Shown: positions 3,608-9,988, numbered from the stretch's first letter. The stretch is DNA of 10,296 nucleotides from a virus (IMGVR_UViG_2548876863_000020:1-10296); one strand, 5' to 3'. The notes: generated by a model not told the origin, from the letters alone. Made by a program: numbers and translations.

Positions 3608-3889
3608 TCATGATTTACTCTCCATGAACTGGTCAACAGCCATGCTAAGTGATACACCTAACGTCTCGATATGCTGCTGAATATCCTGTAGCGTCTGCGC
3701 CTGAGATAACAGGATTTCACGGTTGCATAACTCTTTAACCAGATGCTCAAACTTGCTGTAATAACCGATACGACTGAGCGTTTCTTTCCCTGCATTCTCG
3801 CCTTCTTTGATAATTCCTCTTTCGCTAAGAATCAGGTCGTGTTTGGTTCCGGTAATAACGTATTTTCCGAGGTCGATGTTTAGCTTCAT
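3608..3889 (-). CDS. Hypothetical protein (93 aa)
   Basis: ORF-track frame, ATG 3889..3887, same strand and tight spacing with neighbours; weak RBS. No family recognised. Confidence 0.55.
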
Positions 3890-7245: not shown

Positions 7246-7323
7246 ACGGATAGTCCTGGTATTGTTCCATCACATCCTGCGGATGCTCTTCGAACTCTTC
7301 AAATTCTTCTTCCATATCTCACC

Positions 7324-7623
7324 TCAAATAAGTGGTTTGCTGCCTAATTTCATTTTCTGGCAACCAACACAAGTCACACCCATTTCACTGCGTGGCTTGC
7401 GGTAGTAAATACGGTTCTGTTTACGCTCGACTTCTTCTTTCTTCTTGCAGCAAAGGCTTCCTAGCGATGCTGCTTTGTCTGCTCTGACGCAACCAGAGAG
7501 CTTTAGCGCAATTTTTCGCGCCAGTCGCTGCTCTTGCATCGCCTGTTCACGTTGAGCCTGTCTGCGTGCTCTGCGGCGATTTCTGGCGTTATCGTCAGCC
7601 AGATATGTAATGACTACTGTCAT
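7324..7623 (-). CDS. N: Antitermination protein N (99 aa)
   Basis: ATG 7623..7621 with GGAGG 5 nt upstream (track ORF extends further with a non-ATG start). Arginine-rich motif NARNRRRARRQAQREQ near the N-terminus; C-terminus ERKQNRIYYRKPRSEMGVTCVGCQKMKLGSKPLI parallels lambda N (ERKNQRTWYSKPGERGITCSGRQKIKGKSIPLI, recalled). Confidence 0.85.
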   Translation of the reverse strand: MTVVITYLADDNARNRRRARRQAQREQAMQEQRLARKIALKLSGCVRADKAASLGSLCCKKKEEVERKQNRIYYRKPRSEMGVTCVGCQKMKLGSKPLI

Positions 7624-7678
7624 GTTGACCTCCGATGAAACAACTTTGGAATTGATAGTGATTGCAAAGTGGTTTCTG

Positions 7679-7707
7679 GCCCCTCGAACTGAGGGGCAGA
7701 AAGAGCA
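7679..7707 (-). promoter_or_regulatory. GC-rich hairpin with boxA-like flank in the N leader (function uncertain)
   Basis: Minus-strand RNA UGCUCUUUCU then GCCCCUC-AGUUC-GAGGGGC (7-bp perfect stem), about 55 nt upstream of the N start; no U tract after it, so not a classical terminator. Confidence 0.35.
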
Positions 7708-7936
7708 TCTCGCCACCTAATAGGTCGATGCTCGGATCGAGAGATTTAATTAACCTCGGTTTTGAAGTTATGCATTCACATAAATCCTCCTACCTCTTGT
7801 GCAGCTTTCTTGAATATGGTGGCGGCTGCATAACGCCTATGGAATTGACTTTGGCGGTGACGCGCCGGGTGCTTATCTTCCGGTTGCCGTCGTGCAGCTG
7901 CACTTCACGTCACCCCAAAGCCAACTACTCTTTGGT

Positions 7937-7978
7937 TCCCGCATTTCGGCGGGACAATCCCATCAATGTTAAAGAGCA
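7937..7978 (-). promoter_or_regulatory. nutL (boxA + boxB)
   Basis: Minus-strand RNA UGCUCUUUAAC (boxA-like; consensus CGCUCUUUA) followed after 14 nt by hairpin UCCCGC-CGAAAU-GCGGGA. The same boxA plus identical boxB occurs in the same transcript orientation downstream of cro. Confidence 0.7.
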
Positions 7979-8023
7979 TGCCAATCTGTTCCGTTTGGCT
8001 ACCAGCGTCCTGCTGATGGCTAA

Positions 8024-8052
8024 AGAATACTGTAGGTATTTTATTGTGTAAA
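8024..8052 (-). promoter_or_regulatory. pL candidate (-35 TTTACA, 17-nt spacer, -10 TATTCT on minus strand)
   Basis: Read on the minus strand: TTTACA (plus 8047-8052), spacer of 17, TATTCT (plus 8024-8029). Same -10 hexamer as the pR candidate; overlaps OL1, about 40 nt upstream of nutL. Confidence 0.45.
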
Positions 8053-8110
8053 TACCCAAGGTATTTATTTTTGGTGAAATAATGATAAGCAAATGAATAC
8101 AAAGGATATT
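8026..8110. promoter_or_regulatory. OL operator cluster (three 15-bp palindromic sites)
   Basis: AATAC-TGTAG-GTATT (8026-8040), AATAC-CCAAG-GTATT (8051-8065), AATAC-AAAGG-ATATT (8096-8110). Same AATAC-N5-GTATT motif as in the cI-cro intergenic region. Confidence 0.6.
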
Positions 8111-8197
8111 TATTTTTTTCGGTGTCTGCTTGTTCAGTGCTTTTTATGCGGGATATGTGAAGTGGATCCCGATAGCTATTGCTGCCGGGATTATGAG

Positions 8198-8566
8198 TTA
8201 GTCAGCGAAGGTTAAGACGAGAATTACCTTAATGATGTCTGCTACAACAGACACGGCCATAGATAAACCAAAGACGATCCAAGCCATAGAGATGTCTTCA
8301 CTACCATCGTATAGAGTTCCGTAATCACTGGTGTAAGGCGTAAATGTCGCGCCTTGATACAACAGGTATAAGCTTGAACCATAGAGGATAAATGCAGATA
8401 TCCCTTGTATTGCTATGATCACTAGAATCATGAAACGAGCTGATCTATGCGCCCAAGCCTGGCTTATTTTTTCTGATAGAGATTTCGCAATAAAAGCATG
8501 CGCTAAGCCGTAAATTGTCGAGATTGCCAACATCCCAAAAAAGCTTGCTATAGCGGTTCCAACCAT
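8198..8566 (-). CDS. Small integral membrane protein (about 122 aa, three predicted TM helices) co-transcribed downstream of cI
   Basis: ORF-track frame 8198..8587 (TTG overlapping the cI stop); ATG 8566..8564 with AAGGGG upstream is the more likely start. Three hydrophobic stretches of roughly 25 residues each. No terminator between it and cI. Confidence 0.65.
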   Translation of the reverse strand: MVGTAIASFFGMLAISTIYGLAHAFIAKSLSEKISQAWAHRSARFMILVIIAIQGISAFILYGSSLYLLYQGATFTPYTSDYGTLYDGSEDISMAWIVFGLSMAVSVVADIIKVILVLTFAD

Positions 8567-8583: not shown

Positions 8584-9300
8584 TCAAACCAGCCTTAGTT
8601 TTGTCTCAATTGCAACGCCTATAATCTTGCAGTTTCCATTGATTGGCACGAGAGGCCATGCAGGGTTAAGTCCCTTGAGGTATTTATTTCCGCCGTCGAT
8701 TATCAGCTTCTTGAATGTTGCTTCGTTAGAGTCAGAAAGTTTTGCTATGACCAAGCTGCCGTTGATCGCCTCCCTTCCGGTATCGAAAAGAACGAATGTT
8801 CCCTCTGGAATGCTTAACCCAACCGGTGCCGTCATTGAATCACCTTCCACTTTAAGCCAGAACGCATTACCTTGAATATGCGCGTCAGACTCAAGCCAAA
8901 CATCTATGTCTTTAATGGTGTATGGTTCGCATGCTTCACACCACGAGCCAGCCTGGATACTGCTTAACACCGGATACCTCTTTCCTGCTCTGTATTCCCC
9001 TGCATACCTTACGTTGGCATCGCTCTTAAGGCTTTCTGCCTGTTCTGCAACCTTGGCAGCAATTGACTGGCTAAAATCAGCAATTGAGACTTGCAACAGT
9101 CGTGCAAAACCAGATGCAACCTCAACGTTTAGCGCGTTTCTGCCATTAAGATAATGCCCTACCGCTCCTTGGGTGATACCCAGTTCATCAGCGATTGAGT
9201 ATTGGGTTATTCCCAATTCTTTCTTTTTTGACTCATACAAAGCCTTAAGCCGCTTAGCGTCTTCGAGCTGTTCTGTCGTCAGTGATTTTTTATTTTCCAT
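8584..9300 (-). CDS. cI: CI-type prophage repressor (238 aa), HTH plus S24 autopeptidase domain
   Basis: Strong resemblance to lambda CI as recalled (LTTEQLEDAKRLKALYESKKKELG...). Ala-Gly cleavage site in IQAGSW, catalytic Ser in EGDSMTAP, Lys in TFKKLI. Divergent from cro with operators between them. Confidence 0.95.
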   Translation of the reverse strand: MENKKSLTTEQLEDAKRLKALYESKKKELGITQYSIADELGITQGAVGHYLNGRNALNVEVASGFARLLQVSIADFSQSIAAKVAEQAESLKSDANVRYAGEYRAGKRYPVLSSIQAGSWCEACEPYTIKDIDVWLESDAHIQGNAFWLKVEGDSMTAPVGLSIPEGTFVLFDTGREAINGSLVIAKLSDSNEATFKKLIIDGGNKYLKGLNPAWPLVPINGNCKIIGVAIETKLRLV

Positions 9301-9377: not shown

Positions 9378-9406
9378 TTGTTCATGGTTAATAACGGAGA
9401 GTGCAT

Positions 9407-9601
9407 ATGATTCGAATGACACTTGCCGATTACGCCAAAATCCATGGACAGGCTAAAGCAGCCAGTGACTTTGGTGTAATCCAGTGCGCTATCAGCAAGG
9501 CCATTCTGGCAGGCCGTAACATTATGGTTACGGTAAAGCCTGATGGCAGTGTGATTGGAGAGGAAGTTCGTCCTTTCCCAAGCAACAAGAAAAACAAATA
9601 G
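9407..9601 (+). CDS. cro: Cro repressor (64 aa)
   Basis: ATG 9407 with GGAGA 6 nt upstream (track ORF begins at GTG 9401). Resembles lambda Cro as recalled (ITLKDYA..FGQTK.A.DLGV.QSAINKAI.AGR...DGSV..EEV.PFPSNKK). Confidence 0.9.
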
Positions 9602-9607
9602 TAACAC

Positions 9608-9652
9608 CGCTCTTTAACAGTCATGGTCCTCATTCCCGCCGAAATGCGGGAA
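9608..9652 (+). promoter_or_regulatory. nutR (boxA + boxB)
   Basis: CGCTCTTTA at 9608-9616 (boxA consensus), then hairpin TTCCCGC-CGAAAT-GCGGGAA at 9633-9652, identical to the nutL boxB, immediately after the cro stop. Confidence 0.75.
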
Positions 9653-9709: not shown

Positions 9710-9988
9710 ATGCAACTTACAAGTACTCGCAAGAAAGCGAATGCAATTACAAGCAACATCCTGAATCGAATTGCTGTACGTGGTCAGCGAAAGGTTGCCG
9801 ACGCGTTAGGGATTAATGAATCGCAAATTTCGCGATGGAAAGACAGCTTCATCCCAAAAATGGGAATGCTTCTGGCTGTTCTTGAATGGGGTGTTGAAGA
9901 CGAGGAGTTGGCGGAACTGGCTAAGAAAGTAGCCAGAATGCTGACAAAAGAAAAAGCCCCGAAGAACGGCGAATTCTTCGAGGCCTGA
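9710..9988 (+). CDS. cII: CII transcriptional activator (92 aa)
   Basis: ATG 9710 with AAGGAAA upstream. Resembles lambda CII as recalled (KSQISRWK....[14 protein letters not shown]...A.LA..VA..LT). Confidence 0.9.
9944..9980 (-). terminator. oop-like antisense terminator inside the cII 3' end
   Basis: Minus-strand RNA CGAAGAA-UUCGCCG-UUCUUCG (7-bp stem) followed by GGGCUUUUUCUUUUG; position matches the lambda oop RNA terminator. Confidence 0.35.

Follow-up and report, generated by a model that had tools for sequence, protein, structure and literature searches.

A degenerate second leader unit may form a conserved RNA domain upstream of N in a subset of lambdoid phages

Lytic development of lambdoid phages has N as its first switch, and the leader of lambda N is the textbook example of transcriptional control coupled to translational control. 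At the nut site of H-19B, a "reducer" stem-loop reportedly lies in the boxA-boxB spacer, where pairing is said to matter and sequence to be unimportant (Neely & Friedman 2000). In the lambda leader, two arms, GGCUUUGGGGUGUGUG directly 3′ of boxB and CACACACCACCAAAGC directly 5′ of the N Shine-Dalgarno sequence (SD), form what we take to be the stem cleaved by RNase III (+88/+197), with cleavage relieving N autorepression (Steege 1987; Kameyama 1991; Wilson 1997, 2002). The boxA consensus is GYTCTTTAANA (Baniulyte et al. 2017, PMC5725501).

We analyzed a stretch of viral DNA of 10,296 nt (IMGVR_UViG_2548876863_000020:1-10296; the window), in which a P22-like/lambdoid prophage has its immunity and early-left region; the minus strand carries the leftward operon. 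It encodes cI (8584-9300; HTH and peptidase S24), cro (about 9401-9601), cII (9710-9988; Pfam Phage_CII), and, on the minus strand, a 99-aa N protein (7324-7623) whose AUG at 7623 is preceded by the SD GGAGG (7633-7629). HK620, HK140, and CUS-3 have N proteins that are nearly identical to this one over its N-terminal half, in which the arginine-rich motif NARNRRRARRQAQ lies. OL repeats and a pL-like promoter span 8117-8024; the promoter itself (minus strand, 8024-8052; TTTACA, 17-nt spacer, TATTCT) lies inside the operator repeats, and pL and OL1-3 are annotated at the corresponding place in HK620. A promoter and terminator scan of 7300-8200 called pL only: no internal promoter was found in this interval, and an independent sRNA gene or an antisense RNA could be discarded on the same scan. 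A 129-codon ORF runs on the plus strand (7662-8051), opposite the N leader, and in some E. coli genomes PGAP lists it as a hypothetical protein; indels of 1-2 nt interrupt it from allele to allele, and it is almost certainly spurious.

Two complete nut sites are present. On the minus strand, nutL (7938-7978) consists of boxA UGCUCUUUAACA (7978-7967), a 13-nt spacer, and boxB CCCGCCGAAAUGCGGG (7953-7938); on the plus strand, nutR (9608-9650) has boxA CGCUCUUUAACA (9608-9619), a 15-nt spacer, and, at 9635-9650, a boxB identical to that of nutL. Both boxA sequences match the consensus at 10/10 positions. The nutL sequence is exactly the one annotated as nutL in HK620, and its boxA is the sole boxA annotated in HK140.

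An earlier note on this DNA had pointed to a second boxA-like sequence followed by a perfect 7-bp GC hairpin, about 55 nt before the N start codon and with no U tract after it, and each part of that description was borne out. On the minus strand, UGCUCUUUCU (7698-7707) is followed directly on its 3′ side by GCCCCUC-AGUUC-GAGGGGC (7679-7697), here called Hd, in the context ...gcgagaTGCTCTTTCT GCCCCTC AGTTC GAGGGGC cagaaacc.... A repeat finder placed the arms at 7679-7685 and 7691-7697, with 100% complementarity and a 5-nt loop, and 55 nt separate the 3′ end of the hairpin (7679) from the N AUG (7623). The site is the second of its kind, the perfect boxA being TGCTCTTTAACA at 7978-7967, and the 9-mer ATGCTCTTT occurs exactly at both 7708-7700 and 7979-7971. 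Hd as an intrinsic terminator was rejected: neither strand has a U tract after it, and the terminator scan did not pick it out. The hairpin can be extended to 7702-7673, giving 12 bp with a bulged C7678, in which UUUCU (7702-7698) pairs with AGAAA (7677-7673).

Taken by itself, this feature is only marginally beyond chance. GCTCTTT alone is not enriched in the window (4 found, 2.5 expected), and when the window is shuffled with its dinucleotides kept, about 5% of the shuffles contain a perfect 7-bp hairpin with at least six G-C pairs. The case for more than chance comes mainly from conservation of the hairpin, through compensatory substitutions, in about 80 related loci. Covariance models of Rfam 15 gave zero matches at gathering thresholds in the window and only noise (E > 5) in 7550-8100, and nothing specific to the element was found in the literature on nutL, the N leader, HK620, and the sequences themselves. 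It is unannotated in HK140 and CUS-3.

Comparison with HK620 places the second site in a leader cassette of 206 nt (minus strand, 7638-7843). HK620 joins ...CACCGCCAAAGUCAAU straight to CAUCGGAGGUCAACAUG, and the window carries 206 extra nt (7843-7638) in between; the cassette is absent from lambda as well. Among 50,697 phage records it occurs only in HK140 and CUS-3, and it is carried by 159 of 5,426 complete E. coli genomes (about 3%), including ATCC 11775, S88, and UTI89. Its presence is also polymorphic among P22-type leaders, where Cronobacter phage ENT47670 has the flanks only. Since HK620 and most relatives do without it, the cassette is dispensable, and any effect would be modulatory. 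The direct repeats that flank it (CCAAAGUCAAUUCC and AUUCCAAAGUUG) represent the CCAAAG motif, and in one allele (L007) its 3′ edge reads CCAAAGUCAAUCAUCGG, as at the HK620 junction; recombination between the repeats would therefore explain its gain and loss. A mobile element of the MITE type was considered and rejected: direct repeats are present, but no terminal inverted repeats were seen on reading the ends by eye. A coding cassette was rejected as well. The ORFs annotated in it are inconsistent between records (HK140_048; an opposite-strand PGAP hypothetical protein) and are split by 1-2-nt indels between alleles, which rules out coding; allele B has lost a 9-codon ORF that follows a start-stop block, described below, and not one ORF is conserved.

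About 80 loci, representing four or five alleles, came out of scans that used an invariant 18-mer and patterns related to it, and all the alleles carry the boxA-like sequence and the GC hairpin. Allele A (the window and HK140) and allele B (CUS-3 and most E. coli) differ at about half of the central positions, with AGGAGGAUUUAUGUGAAU, UUAAUUAAAU, CGAGCA, AUGCUCUU, CCCC...GGGG, and the last hairpin as common islands. Allele C precedes a P22-type N and has GCGCUGACAAAGCGC as its nutL boxB, allele D precedes a third N type with a GAAAA-loop boxB, and allele E (L196) precedes an HK620-type N. Within the phage collection, allele C was not found in P22 or other sequenced Salmonella phages. A metagenome scan added zero new alleles, and genome contigs scanned with the invariant 18-mer gave chance matches only, in Firmicutes and other unrelated genomes; looser hairpin patterns in viral contigs also gave chance matches, the exception being allele E, which was new.

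Several loci have features of their own. In L046 (IMGVR_UViG_2558309087_000002), an extra 66-codon ORF (MSSRISNEQKDRLCRLLSEFGV...) lies between the cassette and N, so that the first gene served by the cassette SD there is another one. A GC-rich viral contig with no relation to the window (L133; IMGVR_UViG_3300037787_000044, about 3852-3880) contains GCGCUCUUUCUGCCCCCGCC-UCU-GGCGGGGGCAGAAACC, closely like GCUCUUUCUGCCCC...GGGGCCAGAAACC of the window; this likeness is probably a coincidence. The island UUAAUUAAAU (minus strand, 7741-7750), which contains the 8-bp palindrome TTAATTAA and supplies stop codons in two frames right after the start-stop block, is invariant in alleles A-D and replaced in allele E.

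Is the second site a nut site, as the earlier note had suggested it might be? The architecture speaks for the suggestion: boxA-like sequence, hairpin, CUUUG/CAAAG stem, and SD-AUG follow one another in an order that mirrors a lambda-type nutL leader. A working nut, in contrast, is not supported. Set against GYUCUUUAANA or the lambda-type CGCUCUUA, GCUCUUUCUGC matches at 7/10 positions and is wrong at A8, A9, and A11, in its 3′ half, and the allele B counterpart GCUCUUCCAUC also scores 7/10. Where a single-stranded spacer of about 8-15 nt would be expected, there are 2 nt, compared with 13 in nutL and 15 in nutR. Hd is unrelated to CCCGCCGAAAUGCGGG, the hairpin that is common to nutL and nutR and cognate to the N motif, and its loop is free to vary: we found seven versions (AGUUC, AAUUC, AUGUC, ACAUA, UAUAU, UUAU, and UAAUU), three of them among near-identical allele A sequences. 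Furthermore, GAUGCUCUUUCU-GCCCCUC...GAGGGGC precedes an HK620-type N, a P22-type N (GNAKTRRHERRRKLAIERD, boxB GCGCUGACAAAGCGC), and a third N type with a GAAAA-loop boxB. Accompanied by three different N arginine-rich motifs, Hd does not track N specificity, as boxB must. In HK620, whose N has the same motif, nutL is annotated at the upstream site, and the cassette is missing altogether. To judge from these comparisons, the second site looks like a degenerate copy of nut and not like a working N-binding site. It is probably nut-like in descent. Local alignment of the 3′ half of the cassette with nutL regions recovered only the 9-mer in common (z = 2.3 against the nutL of the window; not significant against lambda), so the argument for descent from nut is drawn from architecture and not from sequence.

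We examined the fold of the cassette with RNAalifold on 41 distinct sequences, which predicted the helices Ha, Hc, Hd, and He, with 99.4% of the cells in these helices paired. Ha (minus strand, 7800-7830) is a hairpin whose arms, UGCAGC/GCUGCA, are invariant and whose loop varies. Hc (minus strand, 7703-7733) is a helix, GAGCAUC/GAUGCUC, around a small variable hairpin. He (minus strand, 7637-7676) is a 16-rung AU-rich hairpin, GAAACCACUUUGCAAU/AUUCCAAAGUUGUUUC, that ends 3 nt before the N SD. The 5′ end of He overlaps AGAAA (7677-7673) of the alternative Hd extension, and He and the extended Hd cannot both form fully. An anti-SD closing helix, AUCUCUCGAU/AUCGGAGGU, appears in the minimum free energy structure of the window; as a conserved feature it was rejected, being weak in allele B and absent in C.

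Changes on both sides of a pair number 6 in these helices, compared with 0-2 in slid controls, a count matched by 4/500 shuffles; they reflect few events, the independent lineages being effectively the four or five alleles. In Hd, the pairs of allele A are G-C, four C-G, U-A, and C-G, and those of allele B are U-A, four C-G, G-C, U-G, and C-G, so that the allele B stem, CCCCGUC/GGCGGGG, contains both a G-C to U-A and a U-A to G-C swap. The extension covaries too, as UUUCU/AGAAA, UUCC/GGAA, or UUUCU/AGAGA. A compensatory change in Hc, from GAGCAUC/GAUGCUC to GAACAUC/GAUGUUC, is found in L066 and L196 (alleles D and E), and He of allele C has an unrelated sequence with the same fold shape. The Hc-Hd-He domain (97 nt) has a predicted energy of -36.6 kcal/mol (z = -4.7). 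Among allele A sequences, 6 of the 8 variants hit unpaired bases even though 60/97 nt (62%) are paired (binomial p ~0.04). In Hd, the stem would thus appear to have been under selection and the loop not, which suggests that evolution kept the element as a folded RNA. Overall, the substitution patterns show Hc, Hd, and He to be a conserved, non-coding RNA domain of three predicted hairpins immediately 5′ of the N SD, distinct from the cognate nut.

These patterns bear on two readings that deny the domain an RNA function. The cassette could be a neutral relic, recombination debris of stacked leaders that is recent enough to seem conserved and has no function. It is optional and a minority form (3 phage records; 159/5426 E. 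coli genomes), it contains obvious fossils of N starts (the start-stop block; L066), and its independent alleles are few. A relic would nevertheless have to account for alleles A and B, which differ at about half of the positions in the centre and keep the same three hairpins with compensatory pairs, for allele C, which swapped He for a different sequence of the same shape, for the 18-nt start-stop block, near-invariant (one substitution, in L196) beside diverged sequence, and for variants within alleles that avoid paired bases. We consider a relic unlikely, though a contender to be taken seriously. Alternatively, the element could work as DNA, either as a boundary sequence, promoting the exchange of modules, or as a palindrome to which a protein binds. 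In CUS-3 the whole cI-N intergenic region is labeled as boundary sequence bsq5, and the CCAAAG repeats appear to mediate gain and loss of the cassette. Recombination inside the cassette would, however, part nutL from the N to which it is cognate, repeated operator-like motifs are absent, and the G-U wobbles (U-G in allele B; C-G to U-G in L023) keep pairing at the RNA level only. A DNA-level role is, in our judgment, very improbable.

The predicted fold also splits the boxA-like decamer: GAUGCUC (7709-7703) is the 3′ arm of Hc and UUUCU (7702-7698) the 5′ arm of the Hd extension. The probability of being unpaired is 0.05-0.45 for its bases and 0.39-0.64 for those of the true boxA, a soft prediction that varies with the assumed end of the transcript. 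This matters for the possibility that the second site is a functional nut-like or Nus-loading site, with the boxA-like core recruiting NusB/S10 and the hairpin perhaps N or NusA; the outcome would be reinforced antitermination or, as for suhB and lambda NUTL, repression of N translation by tethering the RNA to RNA polymerase. The predicted pairing of the bases, supported by compensatory change, argues against it, as do the wrong A8, A9, and A11 of GYTCTTTAANA, to which allele B adds the lack of U7. At hisG, one mismatch at a critical boxA position abolished binding (PMC5725501). The 2-nt spacer (13-15 nt at the real sites), a hairpin unrelated to the boxB of nutL and nutR with an unconstrained loop, the company of three N specificities, and the ability of HK620 to function without the cassette point the same way. 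On the other side, GCUCUUU fits the boxA consensus over positions 1-7, the nutL boxA has an identical AUGCUCUUU, and the site lies about 75 nt 5′ of the N SD, within reach of boxA-mediated repression, which can work from more than 50 nt (PMC5725501). Moreover, the 5-bp core GAGCA/UGCUC together with AUGCUCUU is nearly invariant across diverged alleles, where flanks are ~50% diverged, and the sole change seen in the boxA core (C to U) hits the only degenerate position of the consensus, giving a GUUCUUU that still fits GYUCUUU. It is this pattern that keeps a Nus site in play; it could reflect sequence-specific recognition, for example by a weak NusB/S10 site, rather than mere pairing. On balance we think a functional Nus site improbable.

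The earlier note offered an RNase III or translational control structure, like that of the lambda N leader, as the other option. Here it was right about the neighborhood and not about the helix. When the lambda leader (NC_001416) is aligned to that of the window, the lambda arms GGCUUUGGGGUGUGUG and CACACACCACCAAAGC correspond to window positions 7922-7906 and 7865-7847, respectively, the window arms GGCUUUGGGG.../...CACCNCCAAAG aligning with the lambda leader. They would form a long-range stem (minus strand, 7847-7922) with 5′ arm GGCUUUGGGGUGACGUG (7922-7906) and 3′ arm GCGCGUCACCGCCAAAGUC (7865-7847), of 20 bp with one bulge (z = -4.5). Abundant compensatory changes maintain it in ten leader types (for example, GGGGUGACG/CGUCACCGCC, GGGAUUGGAUG/CAUCCAAUCGCC, and GGGGUGUGGUGA/UCACCACACCACC). 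By this alignment, the long-range stem, and not Hd, is the homologue of the lambda N-leader control structure, and it would be the best RNase III candidate in the leader, with He as the second. In lambda and HK620 the stem adjoins the SD; in the window the cassette lies between them. He recreates a local CUUUG/CCAAAG stem in the CCAAAG-N(12-14)-SD geometry found in lambda, as a miniature copy of the processing stem. Immediately after boxB, a local hairpin (minus strand, 7915-7935; CCAAAG-AGUAGUUGG-CUUUGG) competes with the long-range stem for CUUUGG; lambda has the same arrangement (CAAAGC-AGAAG-GCUUUG), which covaries in P22-type leaders (CCAAAC...GUUUGG).

Hd could still be the processing site of the N leader in its own right. 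It sits between nutL and the N SD, in a position that resembles the lambda site, and its UUUCU/AGAAA extension brings the stem to 12 bp. RNase III substrates are normally around 20 bp, and the G-C-rich core of Hd has 7; even with the extension and its bulge, it falls short of an extended duplex of roughly two helical turns. The arms homologous to those cleaved in lambda lie elsewhere, upstream at 7922-7906/7865-7847 and partly in He, and a better local candidate adjoins Hd in He itself, with 16 rungs, AU-rich sequence, and the CC-AAAG motif of the lambda cleavage region. Processing at Hd therefore seems to us a very poor prospect.

The 5′ half of the cassette gives a clue to its origin. It contains a near-invariant block of 18 nt (minus strand, 7774-7791; AGGAGGAUUUAUGUGAAU), a strong SD followed by AUG-UGA, which shows one substitution (A to G, in L196) while its flanks are ~50% diverged. 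This half aligns with the 3′ arm of the lambda stem, the SD, and the first N codons (ACAGGAGAAUCCAGAUGGAUGCACAA and ACAGGAGGAUUUAUGUGAAUGCAUAA; z = 4.7, reached in 1/1000 shuffles), and for that reason we read SD-AUG-UGA as probably the retained fossil of a region where a lambda-like N was initiated. In the 3′ half, the parts follow one another as in a complete miniature leader, namely boxA-like sequence, hairpin, CUUUG arm, short loop, CCAAAG arm, SD, and N; going by this order, the boxA-like sequence and Hd would occupy the boxA/boxB position of a second, degenerate leader unit. In L066 (IMGVR_UViG_3300034682_000410), a further stacked fossil lies 3′ of the cassette, the HK620-type GGAGGUCAACAUGACA (SD and AUGACA), followed by CACCAAAG / CACCAAAGUUCAACC, a new SD, and a different real N (MTRRTAFTGSSAGRRRERRAALQ...); the nutL boxB of this locus has a lambda-like GAAAA loop, with no obvious boxA seen upstream.

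The explanation we favor, with about even confidence, is that the cassette is a degenerate second leader unit in tandem, kept as structural 5′-UTR RNA that tunes N expression. It would stand between the real nutL with its processing stem and the N ribosome-binding site, and the cassette probably arose through recombination at the "..CCAAAG.." repeats, a motif whose normal place is immediately 5′ of the N SD. A single event of this kind could have left a fossil lambda-type N start, today SD-AUG-UGA. The former boxA bases would then have been reused as helix arms in Hc and the Hd extension, with loss of nut action, and Hd may have been kept solely as a stable stem whose loop could vary. Hc, Hd, and He would form a compact domain ending 3 nt before the N SD, most likely with a cis-acting, post-transcriptional role in folding, processing, or stability of the 5′ UTR of N mRNA. 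RNase III might act on the upstream long-range stem, on He, or on both, with Hd as a rigid GC clamp that holds the neighboring helices in register and possibly caps the 3′ end of the leader fragment after cleavage. That the unit arose by stacking, and that it affects the translation, processing, or stability of N mRNA, is inferred; the role is argued from position and conservation.

A bolder version treats the cassette as a regulatory device, in which the boxA core is masked in Hc and becomes exposed in one conformer or co-transcriptionally, and a ribosome loaded at SD-AUG-UGA remodels the domain. If so, N translation would be controlled in a Nus factor- or ribosome-dependent way, or the long leader protected from Rho; such control would be independent of N-boxB recognition and thus portable between phages of different N specificity. 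We rate such a device as a long shot. The interest of the locus lies first in an unannotated, structured N-leader cassette in a subset of P22-like/lambdoid phages and prophages, including the K1 capsule-modifying CUS-3 and ExPEC/APEC prophages. The cassette apparently grew at a hot spot of recombination, where 3′ ends of leaders and starts of N were stacked, and it offers a concrete view of how mosaic regulatory regions of phages evolve. If it tunes N dosage, the induction dynamics of these prophages could be affected, with a significance that is likely modest. For annotation, a boxA plus hairpin motif should be called nut only after a check against nutR and the N motif type.

Among described systems, the element belongs with the lambdoid N-leader control RNAs; it matches no Rfam family and, in the literature searched, no published element, and in CUS-3 its region is labeled only as bsq5. 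Like the lambdoid nut (lambda nutL; HK620 nutL, AF335538), it presents a boxA-like sequence and then a G-C stem-loop on the pL transcript 5′ of N. The Hd stem GCCCCUC/GAGGGGC is similar to the lambda boxB stem GCCCU/AGGGC, and what comes after it, a CUUUG/CAAAG stem and then SD-AUG, also agrees with a lambda-type leader. Unlike the nut sites, the second site lacks the 3′ half of boxA, has a 2-nt spacer, and has boxA-like bases that are predicted to be paired, and the loop of Hd is not GNRA-like, varies freely, and has no tie to the phage's own boxB or to the N motif type. A second parallel comes from lambda, with the RNase III hairpin of its N leader and the translational autoregulation of N (Kameyama 1991; Wilson 1997, 2002): a structured leader between nutL and the SD, of which the window has both a stem homologue and, in He, a miniature abutting the SD in the same CCAAAG-N(12-14)-SD arrangement. 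The difference is that Hd is neither of these stems, that the 206-nt cassette parts the lambda-type stem from the SD, and that cleavage in the window is a prediction only.

[quoted passage not shown] 2017, PMC5725501) is comparable in that a boxA-like core lies in a 5′ UTR less than about 100 nt from the start codon. The second site, however, is off consensus at 3/10 positions, is predicted to be paired (0.05-0.45 unpaired), lies about 75 nt from the SD, and does not qualify as a repressor of the suhB type. The H-19B reducer is likewise an extra nut-associated stem-loop, with the difference that it lies between a functional boxA and boxB, whereas Hd comes after a degenerate boxA and lies some 270 nt 3′ of the real nut. 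Finally, the boundary sequences of lambdoid phages (Clark et al. 2001, for HK620; bsq5 in CUS-3) resemble the cassette in its location within the bsq5 region and in gain and loss that apparently occur at short conserved repeats. Theirs is a concept of recombination at the DNA level, whereas the evidence from the cassette points to selection on RNA helices.
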